Source: an archaeon
GTDB lineage: Archaea > Nanobdellota > Nanobdellia > Woesearchaeales > GW2011-AR15
NCBI GenBank assembly: GCA_043801855.1
Contig: JAZDLQ010000017.1
Location: forward strand, 15,202-79,201
DNA length: 64,000 nucleotides
Direction: 5' to 3'
The position numbers and the translations under genes are program-made. This document shows, in pieces, positions 10,045-19,400 of this stretch. The notes beneath the pieces are model-generated. The model did not search any database. It was not told the origin of the DNA and saw nothing but the letters and a program-made list of their open reading frames with translations. Numbering within the stretch: the first letter of the stretch is position 1; each line of letters opens with the position of its first letter.

Positions 10045-10842
10045 TCAATTATTCAGCGCCTTGTCGGCGAGCACGCATCTAATCTCTCCATAAGTGATAT
10101 TTTCAGGAAGAGCCAGTTTGATATCAGAGAGTTTTTGAGCATTCCCAAATTTTTTCCTTGCAGCAAGAATAGTTTCAATTTTTTCCTTTGAAACAACTTT
10201 ATCTGCATTTACATATCCATTAGAAATCAGATTGTAAAAATGCCCGTAAATAGTTGATTCAACTAGCCCTCTTTCTTTAGCAATTTCAGAAATGCTTTTT
10301 CCAAGCTTGTGCATCTCAAGAGTAATTTTATCTGATTCACCAACTTCTGCTTGTTTTTTTTCTTTAATTACTTGAAGGTTGACATCTATTTTTTCATTAA
10401 GGACTTTAACTCCCGCAGCCGTTAAAACATAATATGAATAAAATTCAGACACTTGCGACCTTCTGATAAGCTCCATTGCCTCAAGCTGCTCAATGAATTT
10501 TTCAATAATAAGTATCTCATGCCACATAAGCCCTCCAAAGCCTGCCAAGTTAGAATACATAACAACATCTTTGGATTTTGAGCCTTTTAAAAACTCCGCT
10601 AATTTGAGTTTTCCAAGTTGAACAGCGCTAATCGCTGACAGGATAATCCATGCTATGTTTTCACTTTCTTTTTTTCTATCTTTTTTAATATAATAATCTC
10701 TAATTGACTCTTTAACATGCCTGCTTTCAGGGAAGTATTCTTTGAAATAACAGTCATCGCACATTCCATCGTGAATGTACTTATTATGGCCATTTATTTT
10801 TATATTGCATTTTTTGCAATTGAATTCATCATCCATTTGCAC
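10045..10842 (-). CDS. RecQ C-terminal-like DNA-binding protein (zinc ribbon + RQC-like winged helix + HTH_40-like domain), no helicase core
   Basis: N-terminal CKKCNI..CDDCY ribbon. LKGSKSKDVVMYSNLAGFGGL...IEQLEAMELIRR resembles the RQC winged helix. The C-terminal ISEIAKERGLVESTIYGHFYNLISNGYV resembles the helix-turn-helix found at RecQ C-termini. Confidence 0.45.
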   Translation of the reverse strand: MQMDDEFNCKKCNIKINGHNKYIHDGMCDDCYFKEYFPESRHVKESIRDYYIKKDRKKESENIAWIILSAISAVQLGKLKLAEFLKGSKSKDVVMYSNLAGFGGLMWHEILIIEKFIEQLEAMELIRRSQVSEFYSYYVLTAAGVKVLNEKIDVNLQVIKEKKQAEVGESDKITLEMHKLGKSISEIAKERGLVESTIYGHFYNLISNGYVNADKVVSKEKIETILAARKKFGNAQKLSDIKLALPENITYGEIRCVLADKALNN

Positions 10843-11978: not shown

Positions 11979-11992
11979 GAAAACAAACAAAT

Positions 11993-12088
11993 GGGCTAGT
12001 GGCCTAGCCTGGATAAGGCGTCTGCCTTCTAATTGGGTAAAACCAAAAAGTGAGCAGAACACCGGGGGTTCAAATCCTCCCTAGCCCA
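11993..12088 (+). tRNA. tRNA-Arg (anticodon UCU) with ~21-nt canonical intron after position 37; no encoded CCA
   Basis: Acceptor GGGCTAG/CTAGCCC + discriminator A. D-arm GCCT-AGCCTGGATA-AGGC. Anticodon stem TCTGC/GCAGA with loop CTTCTAA interrupted by ATTGGGTAAAACCAAAAAGTG. T-arm GGGGG-TTCAAAT-CCTCC. Confidence 0.7.
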
Positions 12089-12198
12089 TTTACTATTTTC
12101 TTACGAAATCAATTGTTATATTTGAAGATAATTTGAACACACAGTCACTTCGTTCCTGTGCGCTTCGTTTCACTCCGCGAATCCTCCCTAGCCCATTT
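12073..12198 (+). repeat. 19-nt direct repeat (AATCCTCCCTAGCCCATTT) duplicating the tRNA 3' end; copies at 12073-12091 and 12180-12198
   Basis: Exact 19-mer found twice, 107 bp apart. The first copy is the T-arm 3' strand + acceptor 3' strand + discriminator of the tRNA. Confidence 0.8.
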
Positions 12199-12932: not shown

Positions 12933-14042
12933 ATGCACTTTGTAATTCATTACGCTGGAGAAATAGGCTCTAAGGGGCAAAACAGGAATTTTTTTTCCAA
13001 AAAGCTAAAGGATAATATAAGAAGCGCGTTTCGTCGCGAAGATTATGATTCTATTAAATCTGAAAATTCAAGAATAATTATAACTGTTAACAAAAATGCT
13101 GAAAAAATAACTGAAAAGATTCAGATGATTGCAGGGATTGGCTTTTTTGGCATTGCAGATTTTGCAAAAAATAATATTACGGATATAAAATCCGTTGTTG
13201 AAAAAAATCATCCTGGAAAATACAATATTAAGATATTTCTTTCGAATAAGCAGTCAGGAATCGTTTTCCAGGAATTAAAAGATTCTCTTTCGAACCATTA
13301 TGATATACATTCACCTGAGCTTAACATTGAGATACTTGATTCTGGTGCGTATGTTTATGATAAAAAGATTGACGGGATGGGTGGGCTTCCTGTAGGATGC
13401 ACTGGAAAATTAATCTCATTATTATCTGGTGGAATCGATAGCCCTGTTGCGTCCTGGAAGATGTATCGAAGAGGATGCTCTGTGTCATTTGTGCATTTTT
13501 ATAATCCGACGACAAATAAGGCTTCAGTCAAGCAGAAGATATTTGACCTTGTGCAGATTTTATCAAAGTACCAGTTCAAGACAAAATTATTTATCGTGAA
13601 ATTTGATGATGTGCAAAGGCAGATTATCGCAAGTGTTCCTGCTGATGTGCGAATGATTGTTTACCGAAGATTCATGTTTAGAATAGCACAAAAAATCGCT
13701 GAATCTGAAAAAGCGCTTGGCTTTGTTACAGGGGATTCTTTGTCACAAGTTGCATCCCAGACTCTTGAAAACATAGGAGTAATATATGAAGCAGCAAAGA
13801 TTCCTGTTTTTGCGCCGTTAATCGGTGAAGATAAAGATGCAATAATTGCCCTTGCTAAAAAAATAGGGACATATTCTACTTCAATTCAGCCATACGATGA
13901 TTGCTGCTCGTTTTTTGTAGCAGAGCATCCAAAGACAAAATCAACAATTGCAGAAATATTAGCAGTTGAAAAAAAAATGGATGTAAAAGCATTAGTAAAT
14001 ATGGCGCTTGTTGATGTTGAAGTAAAGACAATCGTTGGGTAA
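12933..14042 (+). CDS. thiI: tRNA 4-thiouridine synthase / sulfurtransferase ThiI
   Basis: N-terminal ferredoxin-like/THUMP region and PP-loop SLLSGGIDSPVASW. 369 aa. Confidence 0.85.
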   Translation: MHFVIHYAGEIGSKGQNRNFFSKKLKDNIRSAFRREDYDSIKSENSRIIITVNKNAEKITEKIQMIAGIGFFGIADFAKNNITDIKSVVEKNHPGKYNIKIFLSNKQSGIVFQELKDSLSNHYDIHSPELNIEILDSGAYVYDKKIDGMGGLPVGCTGKLISLLSGGIDSPVASWKMYRRGCSVSFVHFYNPTTNKASVKQKIFDLVQILSKYQFKTKLFIVKFDDVQRQIIASVPADVRMIVYRRFMFRIAQKIAESEKALGFVTGDSLSQVASQTLENIGVIYEAAKIPVFAPLIGEDKDAIIALAKKIGTYSTSIQPYDDCCSFFVAEHPKTKSTIAEILAVEKKMDVKALVNMALVDVEVKTIVG

Positions 14043-14054
14043 TTCTAAGAAAAA

Positions 14055-14951
14055 ATGGAATTAGTTAAAATCACTGAAAAGGTATTTTACATTCAAGGTA
14101 GCGTAAATATTGGTGTAATTCTACTTAGCGAAAATAGCTGTTGCCTAGTTGACACTGGGCTTAATGAGGATACTGCAAGAAAGGTATACAATCTCCTTAC
14201 TGAAAAAAAGATTGCGATAAAGGCGATAATAAATACGCACCATCATGCTGACCATTGCGGCGGAAATAAACTATTGAAAGATAGGTCTGGCGCTAAGATT
14301 TATGCGCCTGCTTTTGAAGAGGCGATAATCTCAAACACACTGCTTGAACCCATATACTTATTTTCAGGTGCGTTTCCGATTGATGAGATGCAGAAGGATT
14401 TTTTAATGGCAAAATCAACAAAGCCAGATATTGTTTTTTCATCTGAATCAAATGATATTATGATTGATGATATTAAAATAGGAGTGTTTCCATTGCCAGG
14501 CCACTCACCCGGACAGGTCGGAATCGCATTTGACAATGTGCTTTTCTGCGCTGATTCCCTTATATCAAAAGAGATTGCAGATAAATATAAGATTCCATAT
14601 AACTGCGATATTGAGAAAACAAAAGAGAGCCTGCGAAAACTTATTGCATCTGATTTTAAATTCTATATTCCTTCGCATGGAGCGCTAGTTTTTGATATAA
14701 AAGAGCTTGCAATATTTAACATTGAATTAATTGAGGACGTTGAAAAAAGAATTCTGAAGCTTTTAATAACTGAAAAAACAACAGAAGATGTGCTCTCAAC
14801 ATTATGCAATAGCTTAGGAGTAACGCTTGCAAAAGCACCATCATATTATCTTATGAATAGTGCTGTAATGGCTTACCTTGGCTATCTGCACAACAGCAAA
14901 AAAATCATGTATTTCATCAGAGATAATTCACTTTACTGGAAAATCGCATGA
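14055..14951 (+). CDS. MBL-fold metallo-hydrolase
   Basis: INTHHHADHCGGN (HxHxDH) plus downstream GHSPGQ and SHG metal ligands. Confidence 0.8.
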   Translation: MELVKITEKVFYIQGSVNIGVILLSENSCCLVDTGLNEDTARKVYNLLTEKKIAIKAIINTHHHADHCGGNKLLKDRSGAKIYAPAFEEAIISNTLLEPIYLFSGAFPIDEMQKDFLMAKSTKPDIVFSSESNDIMIDDIKIGVFPLPGHSPGQVGIAFDNVLFCADSLISKEIADKYKIPYNCDIEKTKESLRKLIASDFKFYIPSHGALVFDIKELAIFNIELIEDVEKRILKLLITEKTTEDVLSTLCNSLGVTLAKAPSYYLMNSAVMAYLGYLHNSKKIMYFIRDNSLYWKIA

Positions 14952-15054
14952 GATCTTTTTTGCCTTATTGCATTACTTAAAATAAGCCATGAACTTTCAG
15001 CAAGAGCTATTACAGCAATCTCAATTCCTATGCTTAATATGTTTATCATAACCT

Positions 15055-15135
15055 ATAATACGCAAGCCTGGTTTATAAGGCTGGCGCGGGAATGTCCAGT
15101 GACTAGTGGCCGTGCACTGGACAAGTCCACGTTAG
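15055..15135. ncRNA. candidate structured RNA / GC-rich element (unassigned)
   Basis: Locally GC-rich patch in AT-rich intergenic DNA with hairpins AGCC-N10-GGCT and GTCCAGTG-N13-CACTGGAC. No tRNA cloverleaf could be built. Confidence 0.2.
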
Positions 15136-15181
15136 GTATTTAAAGCATTAACAAGATATATTTTTCAGACAGCAAGGTAAA

Positions 15182-15586
15182 ATGTTAATGGAAGATTCAC
15201 TTTCAATGTTTAAAAATGATGACGTGGCACGAATAGTTGCATTAATTAATAGTGATGGACATTTACAAACAGGAAGAAGAAATCTTATCTCATTTTATTC
15301 AAAAGAATCAGATGAAATAGATTCAGCAAAAAATCTTGTTGAAAAGATATTTAAAATTAATGGAAAGATTTACAAAGACACTCGCGGTAACAGATATAAG
15401 CTTTTTTTTTATTCTAAAGCTGTGCAGATATGCTTATTGAATTGGGTGTTTCGCCTGGCAATAAGACCAATACTTCTTTTTTAGTACTTGACTGGATTTA
15501 TAATGGAAATTCCAATAGGGAACTTTGCAAAAATCATGTTTTATAGCGTGCGCATAGATAATCGAAATTATTAATGCGCACGATAT
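15182..15586 (+). pseudogene. LAGLIDADG-family homing endonuclease relic (single-domain, frameshifted)
   Basis: VALINSDGHL..RRNLISFYSKESDEID..LVEKIFKINGKIYKDTRGNRYKLFFYSK parallels the I-DmoI-type LAGLIDADG domain. The expected continuation ..ADMLIELGVSPGNKTNTSF.. lies in another frame after a T9 run. Confidence 0.4.
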
Positions 15587-15725
15587 ATTGGAGCGCAAAT
15601 AAAAATTTCTACGAATATTACGTGCGCTCCCTATACATGAAGAGCAAAAGCTCTCTCGACGTGAAAAATGTGCTGCAAAGTTATCTATACTCAAAGCGCA
15701 AAAATTGCGCTTTTCCTAATAGCAA
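15545..15725. repeat. three hairpins sharing a GCGC core (GTGCGCAT/ATGCGCAC; GGAGCGCA/TGCGCTCC; AAAGCGCAA/TTGCGCTTT)
   Basis: 8-9-bp perfect inverted repeats within 180 bp, directly after the LAGLIDADG relic. Confidence 0.5.
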
Positions 15726-15904
15726 AGGAATATATCCATTTGCTATATTAGGAGTTTGCAAAGTTTTTTGCAAACTTCTCTATACTCTTTAGCATTGTTT
15801 TCATATAGTTCATACCTTCTTGAATATTTATATTATTGTTTTTTTACTTATTTTCTTTTTTGTCTTACAATTGTCATACAATTATAATACAATATACAAA
15901 AACG

Positions 15905-15920
15905 TAATATTTATATACTA
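15905..15920 (+). promoter_or_regulatory. TTTATATA archaeal TATA-box candidate upstream of the RHH/surface-protein operon
   Basis: Exact TTTATATA at 15910-15917 in a 180-bp AT-rich stretch. Distance to the first ATG is ~70 nt. Confidence 0.3.
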
Positions 15921-15985
15921 CACAGATAATACAAAAATACAATTATTATACTAAAATGATTATCAGTATACTATTTTAGTCAAAA

Positions 15986-16144
15986 ATGGGTCCAAAAGCA
16001 GTAGTTGTAAACATAAGGCTTCCTGATAACATAATCTCCTGGTTGGATTCACTAGTTGAATCAGAGCTTTATAATTCAAGATCTGAAGCAATCAGAGCGT
16101 TCTCACGGGATTATGTTCTTAAAAACAGGGGTGGTGACAGATAG
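15986..16144 (+). CDS. ribbon-helix-helix (CopG/NikR-like) DNA-binding protein, 52 aa
   Basis: VNIRLPDNIISWLDSLVESELYNSRSEAIRAFSRDYV matches the RHH pattern (beta strand, then two helices with an SRSE motif). Below the ORF-track cutoff. Confidence 0.6.
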   Translation: MGPKAVVVNIRLPDNIISWLDSLVESELYNSRSEAIRAFSRDYVLKNRGGDR

Positions 16145-16167
16145 CTGACCAGATAATATCACTAAGA

Positions 16168-16404
16168 ATGCCAAAATCCCTTGTTGAAGAATTAAATAGT
16201 GTTGCAGATAAAAACCATTTTCTTGATATTAGTGAAGAAATCAGGTTTCTTCTTCGTGAAAAATATTTAAGCTATCATGATCCTTATGCATCAGAACTTG
16301 AAAAAATAAGAAATAATTTATCAAAAGTGACTGTTCCGGAAAAAGTTGATGCATTGAAAAAAGACCTGCAAAAGCTATTGGAGGGGCTAAATGACATCAG
16401 GTAG
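16168..16404 (+). CDS. second RHH-like small protein
   Basis: MPKSLVEELNSVADKNHFLDISEEIRFLLREKYL has the RHH N-terminal strand + helix pattern. Its 3' end overlaps the next gene. Confidence 0.45.
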   Translation: MPKSLVEELNSVADKNHFLDISEEIRFLLREKYLSYHDPYASELEKIRNNLSKVTVPEKVDALKKDLQKLLEGLNDIR

Positions 16405-19400
16405 GCTACTATCAAGAATTGTACTTTTAGCACTTTGTATAGCTGCGCTTTTAAATGCAAGCTCTCAGGTTGCGATAATTGATAATAGCACAATCTCAAT
16501 AGATGGTTTTGCATTTAGAAATATTGAAAATCAGGATTATAATGTAGCAAGCGCCGGTTCAATGGCTACGTTCTATGATATGTCTTACTATAATGGCTCA
16601 GGATTTTACCTTGGCGATATTGGAATGGGAACAGATGTTATTTATACCTCTGGATTGAATGCAACCCTTGTTGAAATTTCACTCGTTAAAAAAGAGCCTG
16701 GAAATGTTGATGCGCTACTTGCTTGTGATTATTTTGTTGAAGGATCTTTTGTATGCCAGAATTGGAGTATAGCTGACTTTGACTACGCAGAAAATGAAAC
16801 ACATGTTGTTTTTATAGCAGATTCATTTACTGCGATCGCCGGGCATATTGCTAAGGAGAATAATTTAAAAGAAACATTGCTTGACGTATGGCCGCAAACA
16901 ATTATCGGAAAGCCATATGGTGGAAAGGCCGCATATCCTGGAAATGTGTCTTATATTTATTCGAACTTTACAGATGGAGCATCAGGAGATATATTATCCG
17001 ATGGATTTTGCACAGCAACAGAAACAGTATCTAATTATACAATGATCTACGATTCAGCAAAAAAATTATTCACTTACGCAGTACTATATGATAATCCTGG
17101 AAACTATTCTTTTGGAATTTATTGTTGCAGTGAGGGATATTACTGTTCTAACAAATCAGTAGTCCTTGAAATAAGCCCTCTTATCTCAGCAAACGATACA
17201 CATCTAGACAATGATGGTGACGGGTATTCTTATATCTATGACTGTAATGACAACAACCCGAATATAAATCCCGGAAAAGTTGAAATATTATATAATGGAG
17301 TTGATGATGACTGCAGCAGTGCAACACTTGATTATTTCTTTTTTGATATCAGCACAAATAAGCTGACATATGGATTGGGCGAATCAGTTCAGGTAACAAT
17401 TAGGTCATACAATAATTCCGATGCATATATAACCATTAATTCGCCGTCAAATATTTCTTATGTGTATATATATGCTAATGATACTTATCCTAAAACTCTT
17501 ATTTTTTCACACACAAACAATTCAGGCAATTATTCAATAGAAGGAATTTCTTATTATAATAATTATACCATTTCAAAAGAGATTTCATTTGGCGTTGAAA
17601 ATAATCTTGTAGCCATTGCATCCGCAAACCAGACAGAAGCTTTTAAAAATAATAAGATTGGCTTTTTTGCATCAGCCTCAGGTGGAACCGCACCTTACAC
17701 ATACTCATGGAATTTTGACGACGGAACAGTTGTGTCTGAAAAAGATTTAGTGCATGCATTTAATTCTTCAAAAACTTATAATGTTCTGCTAAGAGTAAAA
17801 GACTACTTCGGAAACCAAAGAACGCAGACACTAACAATTTCTGTAATTGATGAGTATAAGCTTTTAGTGAAAGTAGTTGACAATAATACTAATGCTGCAA
17901 TTAAAAACATTAAAGTGAAGCTTGATAGTGATGCTAAATACACTAATTCAAGCGGGAGCGTTGAATTTAGGGTTGCATTAAAAACATATGATATAAAGCT
18001 ATCTCATGCAAATTACAGCACATACTCGGCTGAAATAAAAATAAATGGAACACATGATAAAGAGTATAGGCTTATAAGAGAAATAACTGGCCTTCCTCCT
18101 CAGATATTTGTCCAGTTGCCTTCTGATAATTCAGAGTATAAAAATAGAGATGTTGAATTTTCTTTCTATGTGATTGATGATACAGATTTAAACTGCACTC
18201 TTTACACTTCTTTTGGAGATTCATGGTGGACAGCTGAAAAAACATTTAGTAATTTAGTTTCTAATAAAGAGGCAAAGCACACTCTTTCTGGGCTAAAAAA
18301 TGGAGAATATTACTGGAAAATTGAATGTATTGATAAAGAAAAAAAGAGTGCAGAAACATCTGAATATAGTTTTACTATAAAAACAGAAGAAAAAAATTCT
18401 ATCGATACAGAGGTGGCTGATATAAACGAAACTTCATCAGCTGTGCAAAGTGTCTATGACCTGCTTCCAGATCTTGATTCTTACACACCTGATCAAAAAA
18501 GAGTGCTTGAATTACTGGATATTTACAATGTACTTGAAGAATCAAAAGTTGAGTTAGACAGGGCAAATAGAGATATGTTTAATCTGCGTTATAGGAAAGA
18601 TTTAATTGATCCAATTGGTGAATCTGAAAAAATAATTCAGCAAATAGCGGCAGTAAAGGATAAGACGCCAAGGTCAGTTACTGTTGAAGATAAGGTTGAA
18701 TTTATTAAATATGTTGATGATAAAGAGGCAGAAGAGTTAATAAATAAATATATTGATTTAAAAAATACACAACTTTCATCAGGAGATAGAAAAAAAATAG
18801 TTGATCAAAACAAGCTGCTCCAAAAAAAGATAACTGTATCCACAGAAAGCTATAATGTGAGAATAGAGTATCTTTCAGGTCGAATTAAAGAACTAACACT
18901 TATTAGCAAAAAATCTGATTACAACAGTGTTACTAATGGGAAATTTGTAGAATTTATTCCTGATGAAATAATAGGCTCTGCAGAATTATCTGTAATTACA
19001 GCATCTCCTGCCATTTTACAGGATGGCAGAATTTTTGAAATACCACAGGATGAAGCGCACACCTTATCTTATTCTATAAATAAAAAGATTTTACTTAGTG
19101 AAATACCAAAAATGAAATCATTACTTATAACGCTCGACGAGCAAAGTGAAATTAAAGAAGGAGGAACAATAACAGGGTTTGCGTTGTTTAATACGCAAGG
19201 CTCAAATAATAAAATTGTATTTTACATCGAAATACTGGTTATTGTAATCCTTGCAGGCATCTATATTTCATATCAATTTAGATATGGCGGAGCCGAAACT
19301 GTGAATGGCGTTCCTGAAACAGCCAAAAGCAAAGAGCCGGTTTCAAGCTATAATTTTTATGGCCAAGGCTTTAAAGCAATTGATAGCGCATCTTCTCTTC

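Follow-up and report, generated by a model that had tools for sequence, protein, structure and literature searches.

A frameshifted LAGLIDADG endonuclease relic beside a hairpin module in an uncultured archaeon, and its relatives located before tRNA genes

This study concerns an intergenic region in a 64-kb stretch of contig JAZDLQ010000017.1 from an uncultured archaeon (hereafter the window, meaning the whole stretch of 64,000 nucleotides), in which the remains of a homing-endonuclease gene are followed by a block of hairpins. The locus is probably a dead copy of a two-domain, free-standing LAGLIDADG endonuclease gene of a lineage that normally lies directly 5' of a tRNA gene, usually tRNA-Cys(GCA), with the 3' half of the gene replaced by the hairpin module. 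The relic appears to be an ordinary dead homing-endonuclease gene, and the position of its lineage before tRNA genes appears to be undescribed: searches of the literature turned up no archaeal family of free-standing LAGLIDADG genes linked to tRNAs. The hairpin module is a genuine feature but an unexplained one, and a new structured RNA is the main rival to the proposed reading. The joint proposal, in which the relic comes from an undescribed LAGLIDADG lineage in or at the tRNA 5' leaders of DPANN-like archaea and the module is a new structured RNA or a small mobile element, is put forward tentatively. The coding part of the relic comprises three segments.

15182 to 15424, + strand: LAGLIDADG domain 1, first frame, residues 1–81, with the LAGLIDADG helix VARIVALINSDGHL and its conserved Asp-Gly
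15424 to 15516, + strand: LAGLIDADG domain 1, second frame, ADMLIELGVSPGNKTNTSFLVLDWIYNGNSN; family homology ends at 15516
15517 to 15546, + strand: non-homologous tail RELCKNHVL and the TAG stop (15544–15546), overlapping the left arm of the hairpin module

The open reading frame (ORF) of 100 amino acids at 15182–15484 and a second frame at 15424–15516 together encode one complete LAGLIDADG domain, and joining the first 81 codons of the ORF to the other frame from 15424 gives a spliced product of 121 amino acids. A phmmer search with this two-frame splice against 1.8e9 representatives returned 104 matches at E<1e-3, including 33 at E<1e-10 and reaching down to 4e-23; the closest matches were about 50% identical, and the alignments covered query residues ~11–113, crossing the junction at 80/81. 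Mapping 12 homologs onto the DNA by tblastn gave collinear high-scoring segment pairs in two frames, from 15188 to ~15436 and then from ~15424 to 15516. Each segment, scored for codon usage in its own frame, reached 0.50 and 0.46, respectively, compared with 0.44 ± 0.11 for real genes and −0.15 off frame. In a 13-sequence alignment, D25, G26, and H27 were invariant, and the LAGLIDADG helix closed on a conserved acidic residue and Gly.

The Pfam profile LAGLIDADG_3 (PF14528) matched the 100-amino-acid ORF with an E-value of 6.7e-4 and 20.3 bits, so that the profile match on which the identification was to be checked was found, although the window protein (20.3–20.5 bits) stays just under the gathering score of 22.5. 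This threshold was passed by nine of the ten scanned homologs (~40–52% identical; 29–46 bits), and P0005 failed it at 20.6 bits. The NCBIfam model of the intein-containing V-ATPase improved from E 0.087 for the ORF to 2.4e-5 after the two frames were spliced, and the spliced protein was also matched by the NCBIfam models of intein-containing RFC and RtcB. The AlphaFold2 (AF2) model made with the family alignment was a single alpha-beta-beta-alpha-beta-beta-alpha domain with a predicted local distance difference test score of 83.8, exceeding 90 through residue 90 (helices at 13–25, 43–57, and 79–87; strands at 26–29, 35–40, 61–66, and 71–77). Foldseek retrieved LAGLIDADG enzymes only, with the TliVMA/PhoVMA intein endonuclease domains, I-Tsp061I, I-DmoI, and PI-PfuI as the top PDB entries, and a profile-to-PDB sequence search agreed with these neighbours of the spliced protein. 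Because the homology, the two-frame codon usage, the AF2 fold, and the PDB matches agree, the I-DmoI-type LAGLIDADG identity proposed for the 100-amino-acid ORF in an earlier, sequence-only reading is correct, being borne out by phmmer, tblastn, and AF2/Foldseek. The continuation that this reading expected in another frame was confirmed at 15424–15516 by tblastn and by phmmer alignments across the junction, and its description of the locus as a free-standing, frameshifted relic of an I-DmoI-type endonuclease is supported.

The site of the frameshift was located by editing the sequence length, and two features are relevant.

15402 to 15410, + strand: T9 homopolymer inside the coding sequence (Leu-Phe-Phe-Tyr), not the lesion (length-edit scan)
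15415 to 15431, + strand: interval with a 1-nt deletion, the first frame ending ..YSKAV at 15424 and the second beginning ADMLIEL.. at 15424 (insertion scan)

The frameshift itself stands, whereas the T9 run, which the sequence-only reading had taken as its site and which lies one base away from the position given there, does not, as no T-run length restores the frame. T7, T8, T10, and T11 each gave a premature stop, because the target frame has a TAA at 15415–15417. The reading frame was reopened only by a 1-nt insertion within 15415–15431, and the family alignment agrees with the loss of a base near 15424, where ..YSKAV plus ADMLIELGV.. has the same length as ..ISKPVTLFLNDIGV.. (YSKAVADMLIELGV versus ISKPVTLFLNDIGV). 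Based on the insertion scan and the family alignment, the lesion is therefore a 1-nt deletion 5–20 nt past the homopolymer rather than slippage, and it leaves the relic without an uninterrupted reading frame.

The family homology ends abruptly at 15516 (..WIYNGNSN), and the last ten codons, up to the TAG at 15544–15546, are unrelated to the family. The window copy thus has one domain where the lineage has two, and the absent domain 2 would supply the second catalytic acidic residue. Neither tblastn with 12 homologs nor a domain-2 hidden Markov model found domain 2 in the six frames of 15400–16000 (all scores ≤1.7 bits) or in the rest of the window, and an eroded domain 2 beneath the hairpins was rejected on the same searches.

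The lineage to which we assign the relic was defined in this analysis, using family DNA from 18 loci. Its full-length relatives have 221–256 amino acids and two LAGLIDADG domains, with motif 1 as ..ITGDGHLQ.. and motif 2 as ..YLRGLFD.EGS... All 18 homologous loci are free-standing genes, and in 17 of them (L001, L003, L004, L007–L011, L013–L020, and L057/58) a tRNA gene lies directly 3'. The intergenic position, which had been regarded as anomalous for an archaeal LAGLIDADG gene, is consequently the usual one among these relatives. Where the distance from the stop codon to the tRNA was measured (13 loci), ten loci had 0–15 nt, two had 35–38 nt, and one had 92 nt. The L015 tRNA begins with the base that follows the TAG, and the L018 stop codon falls within the acceptor stem. 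The partner is tRNA-Cys(GCA) in 15 of the 17 loci and tRNA-Leu in the other two (L013, CAA; L020, GAG). Six loci also have a tRNA just 5', which is tRNA-Arg(TCT) in L001 and L015, and in several loci a TATA-like run occurs within the last 10 endonuclease codons, ~25–33 nt before the tRNA.

These loci form a coherent, unnamed archaeal LAGLIDADG family that is fixed at the 5' edge of tRNA-Cys/tRNA-Leu, with members only 40–50% identical to the window copy; a position so fixed despite this divergence points to a homing site tied to the tRNA gene. The hosts of the lineage are AT-rich DPANN-like archaea. Homing-endonuclease genes go through a life cycle in which they invade, become fixed, and decay, and the other frameshifted relics in the family (L005, L057/L058, and L059) are as this cycle predicts. 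The only name carried by any member of the cluster was "intein/homing endonuclease", on one member, and a scan of a genome collection for the family gave one distant locus only.

Several partner tRNAs have an intron right after position ~9, some with one or two more introns. The following are tRNA-Cys(GCA) genes with an intron after position ~9.

L001, 6676 to 6810
L003, 903 to 1008
L004, 965 to 1137
L014, 2903 to 3002
L017, 1549 to 1663
L019, 1618 to 1719
L057, 3059 to 3216

ARAGORN misses all of the intron-bearing tRNA-Cys(GCA) genes, and the Rfam tRNA model sees part of one. The suggestion that an unrecognised RNA gene might be present therefore holds for the relatives, in which intron-bearing tRNA-Cys genes escape ARAGORN; for the hairpin block of the window itself it would be one possibility. 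Since these partner genes are missed, such genomes may look as if they had no tRNA-Cys.

Some more distant or shorter relatives were also seen. L006, L023, and L026 (353–372 amino acids) are fused to an N-terminal region of ~140 amino acids with a winged helix, P0009 having a helix-turn-helix-like segment, and L021, L024, and L027–L030 are intein-borne, the host proteins being RFC, RtcB, and thioredoxin-like proteins. P0003 (L031, 144–500; 118 amino acids) is 50% identical, and its last residue (..WIYSGSKNIKSNFFTC*) almost coincides with that of the spliced product. It carries the same promoter motif and no frameshift; its contig is only 523 nt long, and it may mean either that single-domain forms recur or that the linker between the domains often breaks.

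The window copy shares with part of the lineage a promoter block upstream of the ORF, where three features were found.

15061 to 15086, + strand: small GC-core hairpin CGC.AGCCU...AGGCU.GCG, with a loop and stem resembling a tRNA D-arm (AGCCTGGTTTATAAGGCT), of uncertain status; fold z −2.5 (+) and −4.0 (−)
15093 to 15123: inverted pair of the cassette motif, TGTCCAGTG at 15093–15101 and CACTGGACA at 15115–15123
15115 to 15144, + strand: promoter block with CACTGGACA, 13 nt, and TATA-like TATTTAAA (15137–15144), ~40 nt before the ATG

A block of CACTGGACA, ~N13, and TATA is common to eight loci (the window and L001, L003, L004, L007, L008, L014, and L031) as a subfamily feature, with CACTGGACA lying 51–73 nt 5' of the endonuclease start codon; the window copy accordingly shows the arrangement that marks the subfamily, CACTGGACA-N13-TATA at 50–75 nt 5' of the start codon. 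Read by eye, the window block is closest to that of L007 (CACTGGACAAGTGCGCGTAGAGAATATAAAG), and blastn matched it to L007 2468–2502. Exact CACTGGACA, on either strand, is confined in the window to 15093–15123, and looser variants (CAYTRGAMA) occur at 10218, 11475, 13400, and 37059. In one subfamily the motif was observed in one to three copies, direct or inverted, 51–124 nt 5' of the start codon, at the following positions.

Window, 15093 to 15123
L001, ~5932
L003, ~76 and ~120
L007, ~2410 and ~2468
L008, ~2426
L014, ~2126
L031, ~20 to 90

The apparent hairpin 5' of the ORF arises from the second, inverted copy of the motif at 15093–15101. Because the extra copies in the relatives are direct repeats with variable spacing, the motif looks like a protein-binding site and not like an RNA stem, and CACTGGACA is a candidate cassette-specific operator. 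Autoregulation by the endonuclease through this motif would be one possibility, for which I-TevI is a precedent. The core TCCAGTG of CACTGGACA resembles cores of the archaeal origin-recognition box (ORB). A replication origin at the locus was rejected, as there is no skew switch and other genomes show the motif only with the endonuclease cassette. The D-arm-like hairpin at 15061–15086 gave no tRNA match with Rfam or with the tRNA-Cys model R1.

This covariance model, R1, was built from 11 hand-spliced tRNA-Cys sequences and recovers the partner tRNAs of the related loci without exception, at 18–83 bits. At the window locus no partner tRNA was found: ARAGORN and Rfam gave nothing, and R1 reached at best 7.9 bits (E 0.38). 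The window copy thus has no tRNA within ~0–100 nt of its stop codon, the distance by which the lineage was defined, and over the whole window only the known tRNA-Arg scores with R1. A partner tRNA hidden by introns was ruled out by the same purpose-built model, which detects multi-intron cases elsewhere.

What follows the relic is instead the hairpin module.

15515 to 15783, + strand: non-coding hairpin module of 269 nt, bounded by a 19-nt inverted repeat
15547 to 15582, + strand: H1, CGTGCGCAT/ATGCGCACG, 9 bp, then an inner 6-bp AU stem and a CGAA loop
15590 to 15630, + strand: H2, GGAGCGCA/TGCGCTCC, 8 bp
15639 to 15657, + strand: H3, AGAGC-AAAA-GCTCT
15693 to 15713, + strand: H4, AAAGCGCAA-AAA-TTGCGCTTT, 9 perfect bp
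15714 to 15750, + strand: H5, CCTAATAGCAAAGG...CCATTTGCTATATTAGG
15750 to 15779, + strand: H6, AGGAGTTTGCAAA-GTTT-TTTGCAAACTTCT, competing with the closing inverted repeat

The three GCGC-core hairpins reported earlier (15547–15582, 15590–15630, and 15693–15713) are real and were understated, there being six hairpins in all. The inverted repeat pairs 15515–15533 (ATAGGGAACTTTGCAAAAA) with 15765–15783 at 17 of 19 positions, and a third copy lies at 15674–15688. The 3' arm of H2 may instead pair with that of H1 (15576–15589 with 15614–15627), and H3 and H4 are diverged paralogues that each retain the stem, with CTATAC-N-AAGNGCAAAA at 15631 and 15685. The fold z-score of 15535–15790 is −7.9 on both strands, and 15512–15786 folded whole gives −96.9 kcal/mol with z −9.7 as RNA and z −10.9 as DNA, in a nested layout of an outer helix and an inner helix enclosing H1–H3, followed by H4–H6. 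After G+C correction, no 120-nt windows in the 64 kb, on either strand, are more structured than those over 15521–15800, which rank above the tRNA. Perfect hairpins of at least 8 bp with at least four G/C per arm occur at six loci in the 64 kb, four of them in 15093–15713; GCGC occurs six times in 200 nt, the densest cluster of the window, and GCAAA (eight times) and CTATAC (three times) were counted by eye within the block. Inspection of the stems by eye gave four wobble positions, each of them G.U on the + strand, a weak hint of selection acting on the RNA.

By codon usage the hairpin block is not coding. An open frame of 72 codons at 15574–15792, in the second frame of the relic, was discarded as a gene, its codon score being 0.05 versus 0.44 and its length reaching p ~0.04; it has no Pfam match and is absent from the NCBI annotation. 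Rfam returned no family at the gathering score or at E≤10 on slices of 1.1 kb, 296 nt, and 166 nt, and RNase P, signal recognition particle RNA, C/D and H/ACA RNAs, group I/II introns, and omega RNAs were rejected because Rfam gave only noise (miRNA and sRNA hairpins). A search by eye for C/D, H/ACA, and bulge-helix-bulge motifs gave nothing convincing. A consensus scan for intrinsic terminators gave no sites in 14900–16050, and only H4 is followed by TTTT. Phage and plasmid collections contained no blastn match to the module. A viral origin was dismissed, as the pattern matches in viral contigs were chance matches inside coding regions, and so was an explanation by GCGC avoidance or restriction sites, because GCGC is not avoided in this genome (175 observed versus 153 expected).

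The left arm of the inverted repeat begins at 15515, within one base of the end of the family homology at 15516, and mainly for this reason the module is read as a replacement of the 3' half of the gene. In the proposed explanation, the module would be foreign to the endonuclease gene, either a foldback insertion resembling a miniature inverted-repeat transposable element (MITE) or a rearrangement scar that took the place of the 3' half of the cassette. The relic would no longer produce an active nuclease, and transcription from the preserved promoter probably still runs through the module as the 3' end (3' untranslated region) of the relic mRNA and is predicted to stop in the T-runs after 15790. 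In the intact relatives, the enzyme presumably homes at the 5' flank of the tRNA gene. If the lineage reading is true, such an insertion would be made harmless by RNase P processing of the tRNA instead of by splicing, and the intron after position ~9 of the partner tRNAs might break the target site of the enzyme.

Several points weigh against this explanation. A plain insertion is insufficient and a deletion is also needed, because domain 2 does not resume after 15783. The significance of the inverted repeat is modest (~0.01), as its quality of 17/19 was equalled by one of 100 dinucleotide shuffles, and the 64 kb contain the module once only. TA flanks both ends if the element is taken as 15518–15780, which, being two bases, is too short to be meaningful. 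The argument for an RNA on the + strand is itself weakened, since the folding energy of the minus strand is slightly lower. The frameshift could still be an assembly error, though it lies outside the homopolymer. The genome has no close relative in the databases, the highest identity for a neighbouring gene being 53% (an ortholog of the metallo-beta-lactamase-fold gene), and for this reason the ancestral state of the intergenic region is not visible and a covariation test is impossible.

Other explanations of the hairpins were weighed against replacement by a foreign module. That the block constitutes a separate gene for a new structured non-coding RNA of ~270 nt on the + strand, abutting a truncated endonuclease gene, seems rather unlikely, although it accounts well for the extreme fold z-scores, the strongest structure signal of the window, and the nested architecture, in which a closing helix (15515–21/15777–83) and an inner helix (15522–29/15674–81) hold five or six hairpins. 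The stems kept in the paralogous H3 and H4, the G.U wobbles on the + strand, and a TATA-like TTTTATAG at 15538–15545 also agree with such a gene. However, this putative TATA box sits within the closing helix, the perfect palindromes fold equally as DNA (z −10.9) and on the minus strand, and the block has neither an Rfam family at E≤10 nor an annotation by the NCBI pipeline (PGAP), nor any homolog found from which covariation could be read. The equal DNA and RNA fold z-scores would also suit DNA-level operator sites for a dimeric regulator, such as the two small ribbon-helix-helix-type proteins encoded from 15986. WGCGCW (six times), TTTGCAAA (twice), and GCAAA (eight times) form short palindromes at roughly helical spacing, with the ribbon-helix-helix gene directly downstream. 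We nevertheless find this reading improbable, since the array stops ~200 nt 5' of the ribbon-helix-helix start codon, a separate AT-rich set (TACAATTNTNATACAA, three times in 15866–15953) lies nearer that promoter, and the arm spacing of 18–25 nt is unusual for operators. Slightly more doubtful still is a decayed partner tRNA-Cys gene, of which the GC-core hairpins would be the acceptor stem and introns. Here the lead is weak: CGTGCGC directly follows the relic stop codon and recurs as CGTGCGC-T at 15620–15627, echoing the L015 tRNA-Cys, whose acceptor GCGTGCG comes right after the TAG and which ends 3' in CGTGCGC-T, and the best R1 match in the 3-kb slice 14000–17000 is a 7-bp acceptor-like stem with U73 at 15576–15628. 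That match, with its 7.9 bits and E 0.38, is no cloverleaf, having no D-arm, anticodon arm, or T-arm, and no GCA anticodon loop occurs in context; R1 finds even multi-intron partners at 18–54 bits, and the acceptor sequence in question is present in one of 14 related tRNA-Cys genes.

Two further alternatives concern the relic itself. It is very unlikely that the gene is functional, the frameshift being an assembly error or bypassed and the 121-amino-acid single-domain protein acting as an I-CreI-like homodimer. A complete, confidently modelled domain with the catalytic Asp, an intact promoter, and the independent homolog P0003, which stops near the same point without a frameshift, are what such a protein would predict, yet the lesion is outside the homopolymer and no slippery heptamer for −1 frameshifting is present. 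Moreover, the last 10 codons are non-homologous and lie within the inverted repeat, all full-length relatives carry two domains, and P0003 comes from a contig of just 523 nt. The least tenable alternative is the one raised by the sequence-only reading, that 15040–15790 is what remains of a mobile intron (bulge-helix-bulge or group I) which carried the endonuclease gene. Structured GC-rich sequence does lie on both sides of the ORF, and the structural neighbours include the intron-encoded I-Tsp061I and I-DmoI. This reading is largely refuted: no exons of an RNA or protein gene, and in particular no rRNA/tRNA exons, surround the locus, whose flanks are complete protein genes (to 14951 and from 15986); no intron covariance model matched, neither group I/II nor any other Rfam family at E≤10 on the small slices; the upstream "structure" consists of two copies of a promoter-proximal motif that behaves as a protein-binding site; and the relatives are free-standing in 18 of 18 loci.

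A dead copy of a free-standing, tRNA-linked gene can be compared with several known systems. With I-DmoI and I-Tsp061I, which are archaeal, rRNA-intron-encoded, monomeric two-domain enzymes, the window domain shares the alpha-beta-beta-alpha-beta-beta-alpha fold (Foldseek 2dch, E 7.5e-5; 1b24, E 4.9e-3), and the full-length relatives share the two-domain layout with Asp in motif 1 (..GDGH..) and Glu in motif 2 (..D.EG..). Unlike these enzymes, the relatives lie outside introns, 5' of a tRNA gene and with their own promoter block, and the window copy is frameshifted and without domain 2; identity to the solved structures is 16–26%. The closest solved relatives are the TliVMA/PhoVMA intein endonuclease domains (7qss, 7qst, and 7qsu) and PI-PfuI (profile E 1.3e-8; fold E 6e-6), but the window ORF and the relatives of 221–256 amino acids have no Hint splicing blocks or flanking host protein. 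In phage T4, free-standing homing endonucleases of the GIY-YIG or HNH type lie beside their targets, SegB in a tRNA cluster and mobE with "collaborative homing". Like SegB and mobE, the present lineage consists of a stand-alone endonuclease gene between conserved genes, here tRNA genes, and presumably spreads by cutting endonuclease-less alleles with co-conversion; unlike them, it is of the LAGLIDADG type with an archaeal host, and its target site and homing are putative. Should the intron of the partner tRNAs break the site that the enzyme cuts, archaea would have a counterpart of "collaborative homing". The module resembles MITE/foldback elements in its size of 269 bp, the absence of coding capacity, the terminal inverted repeats (19 nt, 17/19), the strong fold-back, and the flanking TA. 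It differs from them in that one copy is seen in the 64 kb, with an imperfect inverted repeat and no cognate transposase family identified, and in that its interior is made up of individual hairpins in a row, not of a single long fold-back.

The relic alone is the expected end state of the homing-endonuclease life cycle and is of little importance. The lineage, by contrast, is a source of new candidate meganucleases and allows one to test whether endonuclease pressure is connected with the unusual placement of introns in DPANN tRNA genes, and the module, which matches nothing known, may represent either a new RNA or a small mobile element of a new kind.

The base composition of the window is ~34% G+C (AT-rich). 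In NCBI, the 100-amino-acid ORF at 15182–15484 (+ strand) is MFH0874607.1, "MAG: hypothetical protein V1859_01630 [archaeon]", on a 165-kb contig, and the gap 3' of it carries no PGAP annotation, the next locus tags being V1859_01635 and V1859_01640. The relic and the hairpin block occupy a gap of ~1 kb from 14951 to 15986, with the following neighbours.

12933 to 14042, + strand: ThiI gene, upstream neighbour
14055 to 14951, + strand: metallo-beta-lactamase-fold gene, adjoining upstream neighbour
From 15986: ribbon-helix-helix gene, 52 amino acids, adjoining downstream neighbour

Beyond the ribbon-helix-helix gene lie an ORF of 78 amino acids and then two very large surface/ATPase proteins. 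Just 5' of the ribbon-helix-helix gene, 15790–15985 has 17–22% G+C and long imperfect inverted repeats, and TACAATTNTNATACAA occurs there at 15866, 15877, and 15938; these AT-rich repeats are probably the promoter and operator sites of the ribbon-helix-helix operon. Farther upstream, an intron-bearing tRNA-Arg(TCT) lies at 11992–12089 of the window, and its 3'-terminal 19 nt, AATCCTCCCTAGCCCATTT (12073–12091), recur exactly at 12180–12198, 107 nt downstream, which looks like an att-type scar from an element integrated at the tRNA 3' end.

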